Of a stretch of 64,000 nucleotides of DNA, positions 13,305 through 41,129 are shown piece after piece. The stretch is from Escherichia coli (lineage in GTDB: Bacteria > Pseudomonadota > Gammaproteobacteria > Enterobacterales > Enterobacteriaceae): the NCBI RefSeq assembly GCF_024502345.1, contig NZ_JALDNN010000001.1. One strand, written 5' to 3'. The first letter of the stretch is position 1; every line of letters begins with the position of its first letter. The position numbers and the translations under genes were made by a program. The notes under the pieces were generated by a model. It worked only from the letters and a program-made list of their open reading frames with translations. It searched no databases and had not been told where the DNA came from.

Positions 13305-13313
13305 AGTAGAATT

Positions 13314-13510
13314 GCCTGATGCGCTACGCTCATCAGGCCTACAAAATCTATTGCAACATGTTGAATCTTCGTGCGTTTGTAGGCCGGATAAGGCGTTCAC
13401 GACGCATCCGGCATTAGGTGCTCAATGCCTGATGCGCTACGCTTATCAGGCCTACAAAATCTATTGCAACATGTTGAATCTTCATGCGTTTGTAGGCGGA
13501 TAAGGCGTTT
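13314..13510. repeat. REP/BIME-type extragenic palindromic repeats: two ~83-bp direct copies (GCCTGATGCGCTACGCT...GGATAAGGCGTT) 113 bp apart
   Basis: Direct repeat read in sequence; internal palindromes typical of REP. Confidence 0.7.
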
Positions 13511-13543
13511 TCGCCACATCAGGTAAGAGTGAATTCACAATGA

Positions 13544-13578
13544 TGCCCGGTTGCTTTTCACAACCGGGCATTTTTTTA
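13544..13578. terminator. Intrinsic terminator (stem GCCCGGTTG...CAACCGGGC then T7) shared by exbD and convergent yghA
   Basis: Hairpin plus T-run read directly. Confidence 0.6.
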
Positions 13579-14460
13579 ACCTAAATGCTCGCCGCCGCAC
13601 ACGCCGTGCACTTCTGCGGTGACGTAGCTCGACTCCTGACTTGCCAGATAAACATATACAGGGGCCAGTTCCGCCGGTTGCCCCGCACGCTTCATCGGCG
13701 TTTTCTGACCAAACTGCGGGATCTTATCCTGCGTTTGTCCGCCGGAAATTTGCAGTGCCGTCCAGATAGGGCCTGGCGCGACAATATTCACCCGAATACC
13801 TTTCTCCGCGACCTGTTTTGCCAGGCCACGGCTGTAGTTCAGAATCGCCGCCTTCGTAGCCGCATAGTCCAGTAAATGCGGACTTGGCTGGTATGCCTGG
13901 ATTGACGAAGTGGTGATGATACTTGCACCTTTCGGTAGCAGGGGGATCGCTTCCTGGGTTAGCCAGAACAGCGCGAAAACGTTAATGGCAAAGGTCTTTT
14001 GAAACTGTTCGCTGGTGAGGTCTGCAATATCCGGAATGGCAACCTGTTTCCCGGCGACCAGCGCCATAATATCCAGCCCGCCTAACGCCTTGTGCGCTTC
14101 GTGAACCAGCGAACGGGCGAATTTCTCATCGCTTAAATCGCCTGGCAGCAGAACGGCTTTGCGTCCGCATTCTTCAATGATCTTTTTCACATCCTGAGCG
14201 TCTTCTTCTTCCACGGGAAGATAACTGATCGCCACGTCAGCCCCTTCACGCGCGTAAGCGATGGCGGCAGCGCGACCTATTCCGGAATCGCCCCCTGTCA
14301 CCAGTGCTTTACGATCTTTCAGGCGACCGCTACCAACATAGGTTTTCTCGCCGCAATCCGGTACCGGTGTCATCTTCGCCTGGATGCCTGGCGTCGGTTG
14401 TTTCTGTTTGGGATATTCACCAGTGTAATACTGCGTGGTCGGGTCTTTTAAATGAGACAT
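13576..14460 (-). CDS. yghA: SDR-family NAD(P)-dependent oxidoreductase YghA
   Basis: 294-aa ORF with [12 protein letters not shown] Rossmann motif. Confidence 0.85.
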
Positions 14461-15184: not shown

Positions 15185-16225
15185 TCATTTATCGGACGAC
15201 GCCTGCCACAGATTCAGCTCGCCATCGGCGATATGCTGATCAATCTGCGCCAGCTCCTCGGTGCTAAATGTCAGATTATTCAGCGCCTGCACGTTCTCCT
15301 CTAGTTGCTCCGCGCGGCTGGCACCAATCAATACCGACGTCACGCGATCATCTTTCAACAACCAGCTTAACGCCATTTGCGCCATTGATTGTCCACGCTG
15401 CTGTGCCATTTCATTCAATAAGCGCAGGCTGTTGAGGTTGGCTTCGGTAAGCATTTTCGGTGTCAGACCACGAACTTTATTCCCTTCACGATGCATCCGT
15501 GAATCTTGCGGAATGCCGTTGAGATATTTTCCGGTCAGCAATCCCTGAGCCAGAGGAGTAAAGGCAATACAGCCCACGCCGTTATTTTGCAGGGTATCCA
15601 GCAGGCCGCTTTTATCCACCCAGCGGTTCAGTAAATTGTACGAAGGTTGATGAATTAACAGCGGAATTTTCCACTCGTGCAGCAACTCGACCATTTTTTG
15701 CGTCCGCTCTGGCGAGTAAGAGGAGATCCCGACATACAGCGCCTTACCGCTTTGTACCGCATGAGCCAGCGCAGAGGCGGTTTCTTCCATCGGCGTATTT
15801 TCATCGACGCGATGAGAGTAAAAGATATCGACATACTCAAGCCCCATACGCTTCAGGCTTTGGTCGAGGCTGGCGAGCAGGTATTTACGTGAACCGCCAG
15901 AGCCGTAAGGGCCGGGCCACATATCGTAGCCAGCCTTGGTAGAGATAATCAGTTCATCGCGATAAGCGGCAAAATCCTCCCGCAGCAGGCGACCAAAGTT
16001 CTCTTCTGCGCTTCCTGGAGGCGGCCCGTAATTGTTGGCTAAATCAAAGTGCGTAATGCCTAAATCAAACGCTTTACGCAGGATCGCACGCTGTGATTCC
16101 AGCGCGTTAACGTGACCGAAATTGTGCCATAAACCGAGCGATAACGCGGGCAGGCGTAAACCGCTTTTTCCGCAATAGCGGTACTGCATCTGCCCGTAAC
16201 GCTCGGGATTCGCTAACCAGACCAT
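15185..16225 (-). CDS. gpr: L-glyceraldehyde 3-phosphate reductase (aldo-keto reductase YghZ)
   Basis: 346-aa AKR ORF MVWLANPERYGQMQYRYCGKSGLRLPALSLGLW. Confidence 0.9.
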   Translation of the reverse strand: MVWLANPERYGQMQYRYCGKSGLRLPALSLGLWHNFGHVNALESQRAILRKAFDLGITHFDLANNYGPPPGSAEENFGRLLREDFAAYRDELIISTKAGYDMWPGPYGSGGSRKYLLASLDQSLKRMGLEYVDIFYSHRVDENTPMEETASALAHAVQSGKALYVGISSYSPERTQKMVELLHEWKIPLLIHQPSYNLLNRWVDKSGLLDTLQNNGVGCIAFTPLAQGLLTGKYLNGIPQDSRMHREGNKVRGLTPKMLTEANLNSLRLLNEMAQQRGQSMAQMALSWLLKDDRVTSVLIGASRAEQLEENVQALNNLTFSTEELAQIDQHIADGELNLWQASSDK

Positions 16226-16381
16226 GACCTCTCCTTTCCACCGTTCAATTTCGAAACAATGTTTCTAGTTTAGCGATTCGCCAGCGCGTATCCCGTAGTC
16301 TGGCTCACAGAGTGACGAAAAACTGGGCAAAAACACGTGCTTATGCTTTGCTTAAAAAAACACCAACTGAGGAGTGCAACG

Positions 16382-17269
16382 ATGCCGCGTTTAACCGCCA
16401 AAGATTTCCCACAAGAGTTGCTGGATTACTACGACTATTACGCTCACGGGAAAATCTCGAAACGTGAGTTCCTCAACCTTGCGGCGAAGTATGCGGTAGG
16501 CGGGATGACGGCATTAGCGTTGTTTGATTTGCTCAAGCCAAATTATGCGCTGGCGACTCAGGTAGAGTTTACCGACCCGGAGATTTTTGCTGAGTACATC
16601 ACGTATCCTTCGCCAAATGGTCACGGCGAGGTACGGGGTTATCTGGTGAAACCCGCAAAAATGAGCGGCAAAACGCCAGCCGTGGTGGTGGTGCATGAGA
16701 ATCGTGGACTGAATCCGTATATCGAAGATGTGGCACGGCGAGTGGCGAAGGCGGGGTATATCGCCCTGGCACCTGACGGCTTAAGTTCCGTTGGAGGTTA
16801 TCCGGGAAATGATGATAAAGGTCGTGAGCTGCAACAGCAGGTTGATCCAACCAAACTGATGAATGATTTCTTTGCCGCAATTGAGTTTATGCAACGCTAT
16901 CCGCAAGCGACAGGCAAAGTGGGTATTACCGGATTTTGCTATGGCGGTGGCGTATCGAACGCGGCGGCTGTCGCGTATCCGGAACTGGCCTGCGCGGTGC
17001 CGTTTTATGGTCGTCAGGCACCCACTGCCGATGTGGCGAAGATTGAAGCGCCTTTACTACTCCACTTCGCGGAACTGGACACCCGAATCAACGAGGGCTG
17101 GCCTGCTTACGAGGCGGCGTTGAAAGCCAATAATAAGGTTTATGAGGCGTATATCTATCCGGGGGTTAATCACGGATTCCATAATGATTCCACGCCCCGT
17201 TATGACAAATCTGCCGCCGATCTTGCCTGGCAAAGGACACTGAAATGGTTCGATAAATATCTCTCCTGA
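16382..17269 (+). CDS. yghX: Dienelactone hydrolase-family protein YghX, apparently intact here
   Basis: Continuous ORF with GAGGAG RBS before ATG at 16382; alpha/beta hydrolase features (GFCYGG). Confidence 0.7.
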   Translation: MPRLTAKDFPQELLDYYDYYAHGKISKREFLNLAAKYAVGGMTALALFDLLKPNYALATQVEFTDPEIFAEYITYPSPNGHGEVRGYLVKPAKMSGKTPAVVVVHENRGLNPYIEDVARRVAKAGYIALAPDGLSSVGGYPGNDDKGRELQQQVDPTKLMNDFFAAIEFMQRYPQATGKVGITGFCYGGGVSNAAAVAYPELACAVPFYGRQAPTADVAKIEAPLLLHFAELDTRINEGWPAYEAALKANNKVYEAYIYPGVNHGFHNDSTPRYDKSAADLAWQRTLKWFDKYLS

Positions 17270-17387
17270 TAGGTTTATCTCTTACGGGATTACGTCTTAA
17301 ACAAGCATGAAAAAATAGCGTGCGCAAAAGTCGTTCTTTGCCTAAAATATCGCTATATATGACGATATATAGCGAATGAGGTGAACG

Positions 17388-17675
17388 ATGAATAACCATT
17401 TTGGTAAAGGTTTAATGGCGGGATTAAAAGCAACGCATGCCGACAGTGCGGTTAATGTGACAAAATTCTGTGCCGATTATAAACGCGGTTTTGTATTAGG
17501 CTACTCACACCGGATGTACGAAAAGACCGGAGATCGCCAGCTTAGCGCCTGGGAAGCGGGTATTCTGACGCGCCGCTATGGACTGGATAAAGAGATGGTA
17601 ATGGATTTCTTTCGTGAGAATAATTCCTGTTCTACGTTGCGCTTTTTTATGGCCGGTTATCGCCTCGAAAATTGA
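17388..17675 (+). CDS. yghW: DUF2623 protein YghW
   Basis: 95-aa ORF upstream of hyb operon; synteny. Confidence 0.75.
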
Positions 17676-17863
17676 TCAAACATACGTATTATCTTGCTTT
17701 AATTAATTACACTAATGCTTCTTCCCTTCGTTTTAGCGCCCCGCCGCAGTATCATGATATCGATAACCATAATAAATGTGTGGTAAATGGCGCATCGATC
17801 GCATTATTGATTTTGCGATTGAGGCAAAATATATGCCAGGTCTTCGCAACGGAATAACTATAA

Positions 17864-18982
17864 ATGACTGGAGATAACACCCTCATCCATTCTCACGGCA
17901 TTAACCGTCGTGATTTCATGAAGCTTTGTGCAGCATTAGCCGCCACCATGGGGTTAAGTAGCAAAGCCGCTGCAGAGATGGCCGAATCGGTTACTAACCC
18001 GCAGCGTCCGCCAGTTATCTGGATTGGCGCGCAGGAGTGCACCGGTTGTACGGAATCTCTGCTTCGTGCAACGCATCCAACGGTAGAAAACCTCGTACTG
18101 GAGACTATCTCTCTGGAGTATCACGAAGTACTTTCCGCCGCCTTCGGTCATCAGGTCGAAGAGAACAAACATAACGCTCTCGAGAAGTACAAAGGGCAGT
18201 ATGTGTTAGTGGTGGATGGTTCCATCCCATTAAAAGATAACGGTATTTATTGCATGGTTGCCGGTGAGCCGATTGTGGATCACATCCGCAAAGCGGCGGA
18301 AGGCGCAGCAGCCATTATCGCTATCGGTTCCTGCTCTGCGTGGGGCGGTGTTGCCGCAGCTGGAGTTAACCCAACTGGCGCCGTCAGCCTGCAAGAAGTT
18401 CTGCCAGGCAAAACCGTTATCAACATTCCGGGCTGCCCGCCGAACCCGCACAACTTCCTCGCGACCGTTGCGCACATCATCACTTACGGCAAACCGCCGA
18501 AACTGGATGACAAAAACCGTCCGACCTTCGCCTATGGCCGTCTGATTCACGAACACTGCGAACGTCGCCCACACTTCGATGCGGGTCGTTTTGCCAAAGA
18601 GTTCGGTGATGAAGGCCACCGCGAAGGCTGGTGCCTGTACCACCTCGGCTGTAAAGGGCCAGAAACTTACGGCAACTGCTCAACGCTGCAATTCTGCGAT
18701 GTTGGCGGTGTGTGGCCGGTGGCCATTGGTCACCCGTGCTATGGCTGTAACGAAGAAGGTATCGGCTTCCATAAAGGCATCCATCAGCTTGCCAACGTCG
18801 AAAATCAGACTCCGCGTTCACAGAAACCGGATGTTAACGCTAAAGAGGGCGGCAACGTCTCTGCAGGCGCTATTGGTTTGCTCGGCGGTGTGGTTGGGCT
18901 GGTTGCCGGTGTCAGCGTGATGGCGGTGCGTGAACTGGGTCGTCAGCAAAAGAAAGATAACGCTGACTCACGGGGAGAATAA
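17864..18982 (+). CDS. hybO: Hydrogenase-2 small subunit (Tat signal RRDFMK)
   Basis: 372-aa ORF with twin-arginine signal and [NiFe]-hydrogenase small-subunit Cys motifs. Confidence 0.95.
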
Positions 18983-34492: not shown

Positions 34493-35563
34493 ATGAAGCT
34501 GGTTGAACACTACATCATGCGTGGTACGCGCCGTCTGGTGCTGATTATCGTCGGTTTTCTGATCTTTATTTTCGCCAGCTACTCCGCACAGCGTTATCTG
34601 ACCGAAGCGGCAAATGGGACATTAGCTCTTGATGTTGTGCTGGATATCGTTTTCTACAAAGTGCTGATTGCACTGGAGATGTTGTTACCTGTTGGTCTGT
34701 ATGTGTCAGTTGGCGTGACGCTAGGGCAGATGTATACCGACTCGGAAATTACCGCTATCTCTGCGGCGGGGGGCAGTCCGGGACGCTTGTACAAAGCCGT
34801 TCTTTATCTGGCGATACCGCTAAGTATTTTTGTCACCCTTCTGTCGATGTATGGTCGTCCGTGGGCTTATGCGCAGATTTATCAACTGGAGCAGCAGTCG
34901 CAGTCGGAGCTGGATGTTCGCCAGTTGCGGGCAAAGAAATTTAACACTAACGATAACGGACGAATGATCCTTTCGCAGACGGTTGATCAGGATAATAATC
35001 GCCTGACTGACGCGCTGATTTATACTTCTACTGCCAATCGAACCCGCATTTTCCGCGCCCGTTCGGTTGATGTGGTTGACCCATCACCCGAGAAACCGAC
35101 CGTTATGTTGCACAACGGCACTGCCTATCTTCTCGATCATCAGGGGCGTGACGACAATGAACAGATCTACCGTAATCTGCAATTACATCTGAATCCGCTG
35201 GATCAAAGCCCTAACGTCAAACGCAAAGCAAAATCGGTCACGGAGCTGGCACGCTCTGTATTTCCTGCCGATCATGCCGAACTGCAATGGCGGCAAAGCC
35301 GTGGCCTGACAGCATTGTTGATGGCGCTGCTGGCCATTTCATTAAGTCGGGTAAAACCGCGGCAAGGGCGATTTTCAACATTATTGCCACTGACGTTGCT
35401 GTTTATTGCCATTTTTTATGGCGGCGACGTCTGCCGTACGCTGGTGGCTAACGGCGCGATTCCCCTCATTCCTGGTTTGTGGTTAGTACCCGGACTCATG
35501 CTAATGGGCCTGCTGATGCTGGTCGCACGCGACTTCTCTTTGCTGCAGAAATTTTCCCGATGA
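34493..35563 (+). CDS. LptF/LptG-family (YjgP/YjgQ) permease, paralog 1
   Basis: By-eye similarity to LptF (LIALEMLLPVGLYVSVGVTLGQMYTDSEITAISAAG vs recalled LptF [34 protein letters not shown]). Confidence 0.75.
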   Translation: MKLVEHYIMRGTRRLVLIIVGFLIFIFASYSAQRYLTEAANGTLALDVVLDIVFYKVLIALEMLLPVGLYVSVGVTLGQMYTDSEITAISAAGGSPGRLYKAVLYLAIPLSIFVTLLSMYGRPWAYAQIYQLEQQSQSELDVRQLRAKKFNTNDNGRMILSQTVDQDNNRLTDALIYTSTANRTRIFRARSVDVVDPSPEKPTVMLHNGTAYLLDHQGRDDNEQIYRNLQLHLNPLDQSPNVKRKAKSVTELARSVFPADHAELQWRQSRGLTALLMALLAISLSRVKPRQGRFSTLLPLTLLFIAIFYGGDVCRTLVANGAIPLIPGLWLVPGLMLMGLLMLVARDFSLLQKFSR

Positions 35564-36639
35564 ATGTTTTCAGTCGCTATTTAATCCGTCATCTCTTTCT
35601 CGGTTTTGCCGCCGCCGCAGGGCTATTGCTGCCGCTTTTTACCACCTTCAACCTGATTAACGAACTGGATGATGTCAGCCCGGGCGGTTATCGCTGGACT
35701 CAGGCGGTGCTGGTGGTGCTAATGACCTTACCGCGCACACTGGTCGAACTTTCGCCGTTTATCGCCTTATTGGGAGGGATTGTTGGCCTGGGGCAGTTAT
35801 CGAAAAACAGTGAGCTTACCGCCATTCGCAGCACGGGGTTTTCTATCTTCCGTATTGCACTGGTGGCGCTGGTTGCCGGGATATTGTGGACTGTTTCGTT
35901 AGGCGCGATAGATGAGTGGGTGGCGTCGCCATTGCAGCAACAGGCGCTGCAAATCAAATCGACCGCCACCGCGTTGGGGGAGGACGATGACATTACCGGC
36001 AATATGCTGTGGGCCAGGCGTGGTAATGAATTTGTGACGGTGAAATCGCTGAACGAGCAGGGCCAGCCGGTGGGCGTGGAGATATTTCATTATCGCGACG
36101 ATCTCTCGCTTGAATCCTACATTTATGCACGCAGTGCCACCATTGAAGACGACAAAACGTGGATCCTGCATGGTGTGAATCATAAAAAATGGCTGAATGG
36201 CAAAGAAACGCTGGAAACATTAGATAATCTTGCCTGGCAATCGGCCTTCACCAGTATGGATCTTGAAGAGTTATCAATGCCGGGCAATACTTTTTCTGTC
36301 CGTCAGCTTAATCATTACATCCATTATTTGCAGGAAACCGGGCAACCCAGCAGCGAATACCGCCTTGCACTGTGGGAAAAACTGGGGCAACCCATCCTGA
36401 CCCTGGCGATGATTTTGCTGGCTGTGCCGTTTACCTTTAGCGCCCCGCGCTCGCCAGGGATGGGTAGCCGTCTCGCTGTAGGCGTCATCGTTGGCTTACT
36501 CACCTGGATCAGCTATCAAATCATGGTCAATCTGGGATTGCTATTTGCGTTAAGCGCACCTGTTACCGCGCTCGGTTTACCGATAGCGTTTGTGCTGGTG
36601 GCGTTGAGCCTGGTGTATTGGTATGACAGACAATATTAA
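35560..36639 (+). CDS. LptF/LptG-family permease, paralog 2 (ATGA overlap with paralog 1)
   Basis: Start MNVFSRYLIRHLFLGF; family motif LSKNSELTAIRSTGFS; membrane topology. Confidence 0.75.
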   Translation: MNVFSRYLIRHLFLGFAAAAGLLLPLFTTFNLINELDDVSPGGYRWTQAVLVVLMTLPRTLVELSPFIALLGGIVGLGQLSKNSELTAIRSTGFSIFRIALVALVAGILWTVSLGAIDEWVASPLQQQALQIKSTATALGEDDDITGNMLWARRGNEFVTVKSLNEQGQPVGVEIFHYRDDLSLESYIYARSATIEDDKTWILHGVNHKKWLNGKETLETLDNLAWQSAFTSMDLEELSMPGNTFSVRQLNHYIHYLQETGQPSSEYRLALWEKLGQPILTLAMILLAVPFTFSAPRSPGMGSRLAVGVIVGLLTWISYQIMVNLGLLFALSAPVTALGLPIAFVLVALSLVYWYDRQY

Positions 36640-36640
36640 A

Positions 36641-36667
36641 CCCGCCGTGGCGCAACACCACGGCGGG
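36641..36667. terminator. Bidirectional hairpin (CCCGCCGTGG-CGCAACA-CCACGGCGGG) between the convergent permease and SPT operons
   Basis: 10-bp perfect stem read directly. Confidence 0.5.
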
Positions 36668-36673
36668 CTCACA

Positions 36674-37846
36674 TTACTGCTTCAGAGTAGCAAATGCCTG
36701 AATGATGGCATCGATTTGCTCACGACTATGGGCAGCGTTTACGCTACAGCGCAGTAGCGTGATGCCTGCAGGCGCGGCAGGTGGCAGGATAAGATTCACA
36801 TAAACGCCCAGCGAAATAAGCTCGCGCCAGATGCGTAAACCGTCCTCTTTCGAACCGATTATTACCGGTACTACCGGACTAATATGTGAACTTAACTCAT
36901 AACCCAGTTTTTGCAGACCGTCATACAGATGGTTGGCGTTATCCATCAGCTTTTGCCGCAGCTCTGGTTGTGTGGCAATAGTTCTTAACGACGAGCGCAC
37001 GGTCGCAATGCAGGACGGAGAAGGAGAGGCGGTAAAAATATACGGGCGGCTGCCGTAGCGCAGCACTTCCATCGCTTCCGAACCGACAGCAAAACCGCCA
37101 ATCGAGGCCAGACTTTTACTGAAGGTGCCAACGATAATATCCACATCATCTTCAACGCCTACAGCTTCAGCCAGTCCGCGCCCCGTTGCGCCTAACACGC
37201 CAAACGAATGCGCTTCATCGACAATCAAATAACCACCGAGACGACGTTTGATATCAACAATTTCCGCCAGCGGCGCAACGTCACCGAGCATGCTGTAGAT
37301 GCCCTCAACGATGATAATCGCCTCTTTCGCCCGTTCACCGAGGCGAACCATGCGCCGTTCCAGATCTTTAGCATCGTTATGGCGGAAACGAATAATTTCC
37401 GCGCCACCGAGAGAACAGGCGTCATAAATACTGGCGTGGCTGTCGGCATCCAGTAACACCACGGCGTTATGGTCGGCAAGTGCGCTGATGACGCCTAAAT
37501 TAGCGGTATAACCGGTTGAAAAAACGATAGCGGTAGGGCGATTGAAAAACTCGGCAATCTCTTTCTCTAACGCCAGGTGCGGCGCATAACTGCCGTTTGC
37601 CATACGAGAACCGGTGGTGCCGGTGCCTTGGGCCGCTAACGCTGCCTGACCTTCGCTGATGGCATCATGATTAAAGGTTAAACCGAGATAATTATTGGTC
37701 CCGGCCAGAATCACTTTTTTATTGCCGATCCGGCCTTCGGTGGCGGAATACACTTCATCAATACAGGTGCCAAACGGTGTTAACCCGTTGTCACTAAATT
37801 GCAGTCGCTCGCCAGCAAGGCGCGCATATTTATCGTATAGCCCCAT
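36674..37846 (-). CDS. Alpha-oxoamine synthase of the serine palmitoyltransferase type (PLP-dependent)
   Basis: 390-aa ORF with PLP-lysine motif GTFSKS and adjacent dedicated ACP gene; family assignment from recalled motifs. Confidence 0.8.
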   Translation of the reverse strand: MGLYDKYARLAGERLQFSDNGLTPFGTCIDEVYSATEGRIGNKKVILAGTNNYLGLTFNHDAISEGQAALAAQGTGTTGSRMANGSYAPHLALEKEIAEFFNRPTAIVFSTGYTANLGVISALADHNAVVLLDADSHASIYDACSLGGAEIIRFRHNDAKDLERRMVRLGERAKEAIIIVEGIYSMLGDVAPLAEIVDIKRRLGGYLIVDEAHSFGVLGATGRGLAEAVGVEDDVDIIVGTFSKSLASIGGFAVGSEAMEVLRYGSRPYIFTASPSPSCIATVRSSLRTIATQPELRQKLMDNANHLYDGLQKLGYELSSHISPVVPVIIGSKEDGLRIWRELISLGVYVNLILPPAAPAGITLLRCSVNAAHSREQIDAIIQAFATLKQ

Positions 37847-38094
37847 TATTTATTCTCCAGCCATGGAAGTAGAGTTTCCATTAATTGCGCAGGGGTTTTG
37901 ACATCCAGCAGAATATTAATAGGAATGGAAATATCGAATCTGTCTTCCAGCATCATTAAGAGATCCATCACTTTGATCGACTCCAGGCCAAGATCGTTGA
38001 CGAGATCGCTGTCGGGCTTAATTTCCACACCGTTTTCGACCAAATCCTGTAAACAGGAAAGGATGTAATCCATTACTATTTCACGATTTACCAT
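37846..38094 (-). CDS. Acyl carrier protein (pathway-dedicated)
   Basis: 82-aa acidic ORF with phosphopantetheine-site-like DLGLESI; stop overlaps the SPT start. Confidence 0.75.
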   Translation of the reverse strand: MVNREIVMDYILSCLQDLVENGVEIKPDSDLVNDLGLESIKVMDLLMMLEDRFDISIPINILLDVKTPAQLMETLLPWLENK

Positions 38095-38125
38095 AGAAAC
38101 GTTAACACACCTTTAAACAAGACAA

Positions 38126-39042
38126 TCAAAATAGCCCGTTGCGTAATGCGTGTTCCAGGCTAATCCCGGGAAACCAATTAATATCTTCAGAAATACGGTT
38201 ATTACTTGCCGACCAGTCGGCGTGGGTTAATTCACGAATTTTCGAGCGGGTCAGCATAGGTTCTTTACCTGCCAGGCGACTCAACGCGGTACTGATATCC
38301 GCAAGGCAGGTGAGTACCGGCAGAGGAATACCAACCATTCGCACGGAACCGCAACGGACGTTGGCGGCAAGTTGCTGTATGCGTTGCCAGTCATAGCCGC
38401 TAGCGACGCCATCGCATAATTCATAGGTTTGCGTCTGTACAGTTTCGGCGCTTAACCACTGACCCACTGCTTGCGCAAAATCGGTGACGTGCAGGAAAGA
38501 GAGCTGTGTATCTGGTGCACCAAGTCGTGGCAGCAGGCCGCGCAGCATCCAGTCAAACAGCGGTTTTAACTCTTTATCGCCGGGACCATACACGGCTGTC
38601 GGGCGAAAAACGCCCAGCGTAATTTCGTCCGCCATTGCTGCCAGTCGTTGCTCGGCGACGTATTTGGATTTTGCATACCAGGAGAGCTCGGGATGGCGCG
38701 CCGCCAGCGAAGAGATAAACAGAAAACGTTGGCAAAAACCGCTCTCTTTTGCCGCCTTCATCAGGCACAGGCTGCCGTCAACGTTACAGCGGGTGAAAAT
38801 CTCTTCTTTGTGCCCGCGCACTTGCCCGGCGCAATGGACCACCGCGCTGGCTCCGGCAACCAGTTCGCTAAGTGAATGAGTATCTTCCAGCGAACCGCGC
38901 ACCCAGGTGAGATTATCATTGACGTGAGCGCGGGCAAGTACGCGTCAATGCGCGAACGTGAAAGCCGCGGGCGAGCAGGTTATCGATAATATATTTACCG
39001 ATAAACCCGGTAGCGCCCGTCACCGCGACAGTTTGATTCATG
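38126..39042 (-). pseudogene. NAD(P)-dependent epimerase/dehydratase-family reductase, frameshifted near 38919-38944
   Basis: N-terminal Rossmann motif MNQTVAVTGATGFIGKYI in ORF 38916..39251; remainder in ORF 38126..38902 in another frame, which is open upstream across the break. Confidence 0.65.
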
Positions 39043-40759
39043 CCAGGGATTCCTGCACATGAAGGCTTGCAGCATAAGCCTTCTGATAACGTTTTTTCGC
39101 TTCCGCACGGGCAGGCTTGCCGGAGGATGTTCGGGGAATACTGTGGGGCGGCAACAGATCGATAGCCGCTGTTACGCCAAATTCGCTTTGGATCCGTGCT
39201 GCCAGCGCGTGGATAAGCTGCCCGCGACGTTCTTCGTCGCTGATCCGACACTGGATCTGCAAAATGATTTTTTCCTGGGCGGTAACAAAAGCAATCGCAT
39301 CGCCAGAATGAATTTCCGGTTCTTGTTCCGCAATATATTCAATATCCTGCGGCCAGATATTACGGCCACGAATAATAATCAGATCTTTAATACGTCCGGT
39401 GACATACAGATAACCGTCCAGCAGATAACCGAGGTCGCCGGTGTCTAACCAGCCCGTCGCGGCAATCTCGTCTTGCGAAACCTGGTCGCCAAAGTAACCG
39501 CTCATCAGGCTGGGGCCGGAGATGCAAATATGGCCTACCACACGTTCCGCGACCGGCATACCTGCTTCATTGCGGATTTCAATGCCATGTTCCGGCAACG
39601 CTTTGCCGCAGTTGACGAAAGTCGATACGGCGCGTGTCTCTGCACCCGGCGCGACGGCTTTACCCTGATATTCGAGGATGTCGCGATCCACTTCGTTAAC
39701 CACAACCCCGGAGGCTTCATCAGAGAAGCTGACAGCCAGCGCATTTTCTGCCAGTCCGTAGCACGGCATGAACGTTTTATTGTCAAAGTTAACCTGACGG
39801 AAACATTCAGCGAATTGATGGAGTTGTTCTGCGGAGATCGGCTCAGCACCAATACCAGCGACGCGCCAGCAGGAAAGATCCAGTTCAGCGAGATCTTTTT
39901 CATTCACGCGGCGCTGGCACAATTCATAGCCAAACGGCGGCGCAACGGAAACGGTGCCGCGATTTTTACTGATCAATTTAAGCCATTGCAGAGGACGCAT
40001 GGCAAAATCCTGAGTGCGCAAATAATCTACTGAAAGTTGCGTGGCGACGGGGGTCAGGAGAAAGCCGACCAGTCCCATATCATGGTAGAAAGGCAGCCAG
40101 GAGACGCAGCGGTCGCCAGGGCGTAATTTAATGCCATCGTGGCTTATAGCACGTAGATTAGCCATCACTTCGCGATGGGTGATAATGACGCCACGGGGAA
40201 AACGGGTGCTGCCGGAGGTGTACTGGAGGTAGGCAATATCGTTCGGAACTGGACGCTGGAGCGCAACATCGGCTTCCGGTAATGCCTTAAACCAGGCGTG
40301 GCTTAAAACATGTAATTCGGGGTTGTTATGCGTCGCGGCATTGACCAGTGGCAACCACTCATCACCAGTGATAATGGCTGCGGGCTGGCAACTTGCCAGT
40401 AAACCCTGGAGTTTGGCGCTCCAGGAATCCCGCTGACCGACGCCCATTGGAATCGCCAACGGGACGGCGACTAAGCCAGCATACTGACAGGCAAAAAAAG
40501 CCTCTACAAACCCGCTACTCGTTTCGGCAATCAGCGCCACGCGTTCGCCTTTTTTCAGGTTCAGCGATAACAACCGCTTCGCACCAGCTTCGGCACGCGT
40601 TTTTAATGTCTGATATTCCAGTTGATCTTCAAGTTGGCAACGTCTGTCATAAAAATTCATTCCGGCGCTACTCAGAGCGGCGTAGTCCAAAGCATCAACC
40701 AGCGTTGGAAAATCGGCATAGCGCATAGGTAGGGAATGCGTAAAGATTTTATTAGACAT
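39038..40759 (-). CDS. Fatty-acyl-AMP ligase / acyl-ACP synthetase-type adenylating enzyme
   Basis: AMP-binding motifs YTSGSTRFPRGV and GYG-type; stop overlaps the reductase start (ATGA). Confidence 0.8.
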   Translation of the reverse strand: MSNKIFTHSLPMRYADFPTLVDALDYAALSSAGMNFYDRRCQLEDQLEYQTLKTRAEAGAKRLLSLNLKKGERVALIAETSSGFVEAFFACQYAGLVAVPLAIPMGVGQRDSWSAKLQGLLASCQPAAIITGDEWLPLVNAATHNNPELHVLSHAWFKALPEADVALQRPVPNDIAYLQYTSGSTRFPRGVIITHREVMANLRAISHDGIKLRPGDRCVSWLPFYHDMGLVGFLLTPVATQLSVDYLRTQDFAMRPLQWLKLISKNRGTVSVAPPFGYELCQRRVNEKDLAELDLSCWRVAGIGAEPISAEQLHQFAECFRQVNFDNKTFMPCYGLAENALAVSFSDEASGVVVNEVDRDILEYQGKAVAPGAETRAVSTFVNCGKALPEHGIEIRNEAGMPVAERVVGHICISGPSLMSGYFGDQVSQDEIAATGWLDTGDLGYLLDGYLYVTGRIKDLIIIRGRNIWPQDIEYIAEQEPEIHSGDAIAFVTAQEKIILQIQCRISDEERRGQLIHALAARIQSEFGVTAAIDLLPPHSIPRTSSGKPARAEAKKRYQKAYAASLHVQESLA

Positions 40760-41129
40760 ATACACCACGAAAAAATTGGATATCAAAAATAAAATGACAA
40801 TAATGCGGTGGATTATATAGGCATAAAAGATAAATGAGATAGTATTTTCATCGGTGTGAAAATGAACATTGATTTAAATAATGAGTTTAAGTTTTTTGTT
40901 TTTATTGTGAATGATATTTAATTTATGAATATATTAAGAAGAAGCCTTGTCCGGTCGCCTTAAATCGACAAAAGGCATTGAGGCGCTTCTGTGTAGTCTC
41001 TAACCTTATCATAATCATTAATAAATACTATTTATTCTTTGTTTGTATTCATTGGGTTGATTATTAAGGTGTCGTTCGTTGCTGTTGCAACCTGTTTTTC
41101 ACCGTTAATTATTTGTTATCCACAGAGAT

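Follow-up and report, generated by a model that had tools for sequence, protein, structure and literature searches.

The stretch of Escherichia coli DNA analyzed here, 64,000 nucleotides of contig NZ_JALDNN010000001.1 (assembly GCF_024502345.1) and referred to below as the window, carries an intact yghX gene that encodes a complete member of the dienelactone hydrolase (DLH) family. Comparison with other genomes indicates that this is the ancestral, functional allele of a core gene, and that the yghX of K-12 is a derived pseudogene. The reading that explains the data best, to which we give a probability of about 0.9, is that of an ancestral intact allele encoding a DLH-family enzyme with a Cys-Asp-His triad and a Tat-type N terminus, which would work as a periplasmic hydrolase; within this reading, the export and the cleavage site are predictions.

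yghX in the window and in K-12

The yghX reading frame comprises 888 nt, from the ATG at 16382 to the TGA at 17267–17269, and contains no internal stop codon. The gene, its ribosome-binding site, and the two positions at which it differs in length from its K-12 counterpart are as follows.

16382–17269, plus strand: intact yghX coding sequence, 295 codons plus TGA, for a YghX-family enzyme of the dienelactone hydrolase fold.
16369–16374, plus strand: Shine-Dalgarno sequence GAGGAG, 7 nt 5′ of the yghX ATG, read from the sequence.
16490–16491, plus strand: TA in codon 37, present here and deleted in MG1655 according to the alignments (alternatively AT at 16491–16492).
16851, plus strand: one C of the CC pair 16851–16852 in codon 157, present here and deleted in MG1655 according to the alignments.

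An earlier note on this DNA had described a continuous 295-codon frame behind a GAGGAG ribosome-binding site, and its coordinates proved accurate to the base. The ATG at 16382 is the true start, because RefSeq gives this gene a length of 888 nt in other strains and every homologue opens with M-[PT]-R-L-T-A-K. A GTG at 16337, from which a mechanically called frame would run for 310 aa, was considered as an alternative start and rejected on the same grounds; moreover, a Shine-Dalgarno sequence is absent at that GTG, and GAGGAG serves the ATG. The order of genes at the locus is the usual one, with a divergent gpr followed by yghX, yghW, and hybOABCDEFG.

In K-12 MG1655 (NC_000913.3), yghX (b4658) is annotated as a pseudogene at 3146856..3147691, and a remnant of 47 aa, yqhI (b4755), is annotated at the 5′ end of yghX at 3147597..3147740. 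In a K-12-like RefSeq genome, the same span is labelled "frameshifted". MG1655 and W3110 share with the window the locus gpr–yghX–yghW–hybO, and the alignment placed the same GAGGAG site and the same start codon in front of the 47-aa YqhI of MG1655; the K-12 gene, however, lacks the TA of codon 37 and the C of codon 157, and because these are missing, its translation stops after 47 residues as YqhI. When the K-12 sequence was translated segment by segment, residues 1–36 were read in frame 0, with 11 residues out of frame and a stop behind them, which is exactly the published YqhI, then residues 38–157 were read in the +1 frame, and residues 158–295 were in frame 0 again. YqhI, which was listed among the newly identified small proteins of K-12 (PMC6001520), is the N-terminal remnant of YghX, and the Pfam YqhI-like domain (PF23678), which covers YghX residues 1–36, is named after it.

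Besides the two indels, only 7 SNPs distinguished yghX of the window from that of MG1655 in the pairwise alignment, and with the K-12 frame repaired, the two proteins differed at F69V only. From exbB to hybB, the two sequences were 99.37% identical over 9,004 columns with 54 mismatches, and the two gaps in this 9-kb alignment were the two yghX lesions. The earlier note had described K-12 yghX as a frameshifted pseudogene and had named an intact and identical K-12 gene as the result that would speak against it. The alignment found the K-12 gene neither intact nor identical, so that its description as a pseudogene agrees with both annotation and alignment; K-12 has two frameshifts, however, and not one. 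Both the 2-bp and the 1-bp site are intact in the window, which therefore encodes the full protein of 295 residues.

Distribution and ancestry of the alleles

To count the two lesions, we matched 50-nt junction probes to 5426 complete E. coli genomes; each probe was built to have no 28-mer seed in common with the other allele. The 2-bp deletion junction was found in at least 1505 and the 1-bp deletion junction in at least 1199 of the 5426, and the corresponding intact junctions were found in at least 3490 genomes at the first site (codon 37) and in at least 4221 at the second (codon 157). Nearly all genomes were accounted for at the second site (1199 + 4221 = 5420 of the 5425 having the locus), and about 430 matched neither probe at the first, presumably because of SNPs nearby. 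As judged from the two lesion sites, roughly 64–72% of the genomes are intact at both and 22–28% carry the broken allele; these are fractions of the collection and not population frequencies, because many of its genomes are laboratory derivatives of K-12.

The K-12 allele is not private to K-12. Genomes with the broken allele include clinical, animal, and environmental isolates, the lesion probes matched isolates from chicken, dog, river water, and humans, and both lesions were present in the clinical isolate ECONIH6 as in MG1655. Strain AVS0750 carries the 2-bp lesion only, and in H40 the match was limited to the last 19% of the yghX query. Among a spread sample of 40 genomes, the match lengths fitted the absence of any lesion in about 29, the 2-bp lesion only in 2, and both lesions in 8, and match lengths fitting the 1-bp lesion only were seen in none. 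Because no genome with the 1-bp lesion only appeared among these 40, and because the counts of 1505 and 1199 fit a nested order, the data suggest that the 2-bp deletion arose before the 1-bp deletion. The K-12 lineage would accordingly have acquired the 2-bp deletion in codon 37 first and the 1-bp deletion in codon 157 afterward.

Full-length homologues of 294–298 aa with 85–92% identity are present in Citrobacter, Pseudescherichia, Enterobacter, Kosakonia, Leclercia, and E. fergusonii. For two divergent intact E. coli alleles compared with that of the window, dN/dS was 0.066 (19 nucleotide differences) and 0.051 (44 differences). As judged by sequence comparison, the intact yghX is ancestral and under purifying selection, because the outgroup homologues are full length and dN/dS is 0.05–0.07. 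The K-12 form is a recent loss, in which one amino acid change has accumulated so far. This also limits what the allele says about descent. The intact yghX had been taken in the earlier note as support for a non-K-12 lineage; the window is indeed not K-12, which its intact yghX excludes, but as a lineage marker the gene is weak, because the intact allele is the majority and ancestral state and the broken allele is common outside K-12.

A gene that is intact in sequence may nevertheless be silent or dispensable in this strain, and functionally the equal of the K-12 pseudogene. In line with this, about a quarter of the sequenced E. coli do without an intact yghX, no yghX phenotype is reported in the literature found, and a promoter and terminator scan of 16150–17900 yielded nothing exceeding the shuffled expectation, with no sigma-70-like promoter upstream of yghX. 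The low dN/dS among intact alleles and the 85–92% protein identity across genera, however, argue against such an idle gene, and even in K-12 a 47-aa product of the same start codon is listed (PMC6001520). We therefore regard silence or dispensability as improbable. Far less credible still is that the intactness is an artefact of assembly or sequencing, or that a K-12-like pseudogene has secondarily reverted. Nothing specific speaks for it, except that no complete E. coli genome among the 5426 RefSeq genomes is more than 99.7% identical over the 1.2-kb yghX stretch. It would need the exact repair of two independent lesions, and it is contradicted by the intact outgroup genera, by the thousands of genomes in which each intact junction was counted, and by the identical 295-aa protein on 639 contigs, which is recorded as "MULTISPECIES: YghX family hydrolase [Escherichia]". 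The ancestral, functional allele thus remains the preferred reading.

Several other features of the window were recorded in the course of these comparisons. Over 8000–32000, the best of the 5426 complete genomes was 99.2% identical across 24 kb, so that the source strain is not one of them and has no close relative there; given also the IS1 described below, it may be a Shigella or belong to an E. coli lineage not yet sampled. A perfect inverted repeat with arms of 11 bp, TCGCTATATAT-GACG-ATATATAGCGA, occupies 17350–17375 and ends 13 nt short of the yghW start codon (17388). Of five other E. coli strains, four keep the arms and one, BCE049, has a G-to-A change in the right arm; the 4-nt spacer varies (GACG, GACA, or AACA). 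The repeat resembles an operator or an RNA hairpin, placed so as to overlap the ribosome-binding site of yghW. On the other side of yghX, two repeat copies of roughly 85–95 bp lie between exbD and yghA (13313–13520); each contains the REP-like motif GCCTGATGCGCTACGCT.ATCAGGCCTACA, and the copies are present in MG1655 and FDAARGOS_943 too. The neighboring yghA (13576–14460, minus strand) is an intact frame of 294 aa; the annotation of FDAARGOS_943, the closest complete genome, lists it as a pseudogene that has an internal stop.

Two further segments of the window carry islands. Positions 1–2902, upstream of ygiQ, are not collinear with FDAARGOS_943, which has parC-plsC-ftsP there, and contain a variable island with an ankyrin-repeat protein and a membrane protein (reading frames at 13–642, 1452–2453, and 2389–2862) that stands next to ygiQ in a minority of E. 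coli genomes. Within it, a complete IS1 of 768 bp lies at 621–1388, with an InsB frame at 870–1373 and both terminal inverted repeats (GGTGATGCTGCCAACTTACTGAT at 621–643, and GGTAATGACTCCAACTTATTGAT on the minus strand at 1366–1388). An IS1 at this site was found in 0 of the 5426 complete genomes, the best matches covering all but the IS. The other segment, at about 30900–41000, holds, by collinearity with FDAARGOS_943, an island upstream of yghO that includes lptF/lptG paralogues and genes for serine palmitoyltransferase (spt), acyl carrier protein, an epimerase, and a fatty acyl-AMP ligase.

Family, structure, and catalytic site

The window protein belongs to the NCBIfam family NF041440, "YghX family hydrolase", which it matched end to end with 586.4 bits against a cut-off of 460 (residues 3–294 on profile positions 1–292 of 292). 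Residues 84–294 matched the Pfam DLH family (PF01738) with an E value of 2.7e-48 and 164.8 bits against a cut-off of 21, and this profile too was covered in full (positions 1–217 of 217). A structure of the same gene and family is available as PDB 4ZV9, deposited as an "uncharacterized protein" of E. coli O157:H7 Sakai. Over residues 59–294, 235 of 236 residues are identical (99.6%), the sole substitution being S135 of the window protein, which is N in 4ZV9, and the two share the DLH fold and the Cys-Asp-His triad; the conservation of the triad in 4ZV9 has been noted before (PMC8533429). The crystal construct, however, lacks residues 1–59; its first YghX residue is 60, preceded by three residues left from a tag, and it is thus uninformative on the N-terminal region.

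The predicted catalytic residues were placed by alignment with ClcD, the DLH of Pseudomonas knackmussii (PDB 1DIN, 4U2C, and variants).

16937–16939, plus strand: codon of Cys186, the predicted nucleophile in G-F-C-Y-G-G, aligned with DLH residue 123 (4U2C, C123S variant).
17078–17080, plus strand: codon of Asp233, the predicted acid of the triad, aligned with DLH Asp171.
17171–17173, plus strand: codon of His264, the predicted base of the triad, aligned with DLH His202.

Cys186, Asp233, and His264 thus occupy the positions of C123, D171, and H202 of ClcD, and they are invariant in 15 enterobacterial homologues. E106, which aligns with ClcD Glu36, is likewise invariant in the enterobacterial alignment. 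ClcD and YghX therefore have in common the Pfam family, the fold, the aligned triad, and the Glu36 equivalent, but the similarity is distant (E about 5e-15), and ClcD is without the N-terminal extension. The two differ further at ClcD Arg206, which binds the substrate carboxylate and is aligned with Asn268 of YghX. Because Asn268 stands at this position, dienelactone is not assured as the substrate of YghX. The Cys186-Asp233-His264 domain would be expected to hydrolyze some ester, lactone, or thioester via a covalent acyl-cysteine intermediate.

In a preprint, the enzyme was purified under the name EcoDLH and its active-site cysteine was reported to be modified or oxidised in the crystal structure; EcoDLH showed no phosphotriesterase activity (10.1101/2025.10.30.685675). 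An old suggestion, repeated in a 2013 review, that yghX might encode a cPHB polymerase on the strength of a GxCxG motif is unsupported by any data found.

The N-terminal region as a candidate export signal

In front of the DLH domain, YghX has a conserved extension of 58 residues, MPRLTAKDFPQELLDYYDYYAHGKIS-KR-EFLN-LAAKYAVGGMTALALFDLL-KPNYALA, after which the protein continues with TQVEF.

16382–16555, plus strand: codons 1–58, the conserved N-terminal region, a putative Tat-type signal in which a long n-region precedes a weakly hydrophobic h-region and an A-L-A cleavage site.
16460–16465, plus strand: codons of K27-R28 (AAA CGT) in S-K-R-E-F-L, at the twin-arginine position.

The first 67 residues were searched against 1.84 billion cluster representatives, which returned 1108 relatives at E ≤ 1e-3, and the best 150 of these 1108 clusters were analyzed. 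Among them, positions 27–28 were RR in 102 and KR in 48, the residue before the pair was mostly S, T, D, or N, and nearly all had F30 (149 of 150) and most had L31 (130 of 150). At the other end of the region, where sequences of the same set could be aligned, 126 of 134 had A56 and 124 of 127 had A58. The mean hydropathy of residues 33–51 was 1.4 in the window protein and 0.98 in the family, so that a weakly hydrophobic stretch is followed by K52-P-N-Y-A56-L-A58, with a basic K52 and an A-x-A motif, as in the h- and c-regions of a signal peptide. The motif of the window protein lacks the two consecutive arginines and reads S-K-R-E-F-L-N against S/T-R-R-x-F-L-K; natural KR variants of Tat signals are known to be exported. 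These features suggest that residues 1–58 may be a Tat-type signal peptide with a signal peptidase I site. The start of 4ZV9 at residue 60 would fit the trimming of a predicted signal peptide by its depositors, presumably for that reason.

The neighboring hydrogenase-2 small subunit HybO (window 17864–18982) has a Tat signal of the same layout: after a long n-region come (S/T/N)-R/K-R-x-F-(L/M), a weakly hydrophobic stretch rich in Ala and Gly, and a small-x-small cleavage site. As a positive control, HybO matched TIGR01409 with 24.5 bits against a cut-off of 16.7, whereas neither TIGR01409 nor the Pfam Tat model matched the N terminus of YghX, which has KR, or those of five RR-bearing homologues at E ≤ 1, although HMMER filters easily lose short profiles. 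Because the Tat profiles gave no match, it is the conservation of the motif that argues for the Tat reading. A further difference from Tat-signal proteins such as HybO is that YghX is not known to carry a cofactor that would call for export by Tat, and no literature was found linking YghX or the dienelactone hydrolase family with Tat.

These observations leave room for an enzyme from an equally intact and conserved frame that stays in the cytoplasm or is anchored in the membrane, residues 1–58 serving as an anchor that is not cleaved or as a domain for regulation or for binding a partner. The KR pair, the failure of the Tat models to find even the RR homologues while HybO is matched, and the family of its own that Pfam gives to residues 1–36 (PF23678) are all in keeping with this, as are residues 1–24, which are almost invariant across genera and far more conserved than a normal signal peptide n-region. 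On the other hand, [ST]-R-R-x-F-L, the weakly hydrophobic stretch, and P-N-Y-A-x-A are conserved together over the best 150 clusters, the stretch contains Lys and Asp and is of low hydropathy, which is more in line with the h-region of a Tat signal than with a membrane anchor, and the crystallized construct folds without residues 1–59. On balance, a cytoplasmic or anchored enzyme seems unlikely, though it deserves serious weight, and Tat-dependent export of YghX to the periplasm is mildly favored by the conserved motifs. In the preferred reading, residues 1–58 would present S-K-R-E-F-L, then the weakly hydrophobic stretch and K-P-N-Y-A-L-A, with a predicted cleavage point behind it, and the enzyme would be exported to the periplasm in folded form.

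A bolder proposal, for which we put the odds slightly below even, is that YghX may be a true Tat substrate, a cysteine hydrolase of the periplasm, and may be off the canonical Tat-substrate lists only because these are based on K-12, in which the gene is broken. If this were true, the unusually conserved stretch of 25 residues before the motif (T-A-K-D-F-P-Q-E-L-L-D-Y-Y-D-Y-Y-A-H-G) could be recognized by a dedicated chaperone or proofreading step, and the YqhI of K-12 would be the orphaned n-region of the YghX signal peptide.

An intact yghX is in itself ordinary and already known: the pseudogene status in K-12 is standard annotation, RefSeq already models the family of the intact protein, and the structure of the protein has been solved. 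What is added here is small, namely, the reading of the N terminus as a Tat signal and a lesion that was acquired, as it appears, in two steps and is widely shared. For yghX, K-12 is a reference strain with a derived pseudogene, and most E. coli keep the gene. Many metabolic-engineering papers have used the K-12 yghX as a site where integration is neutral; in a strain whose yghX is intact, the same integration would destroy a conserved gene under purifying selection. The physiology of YghX, including its possible Tat-dependent location in the periplasm, has hardly been studied because K-12 is without the enzyme.
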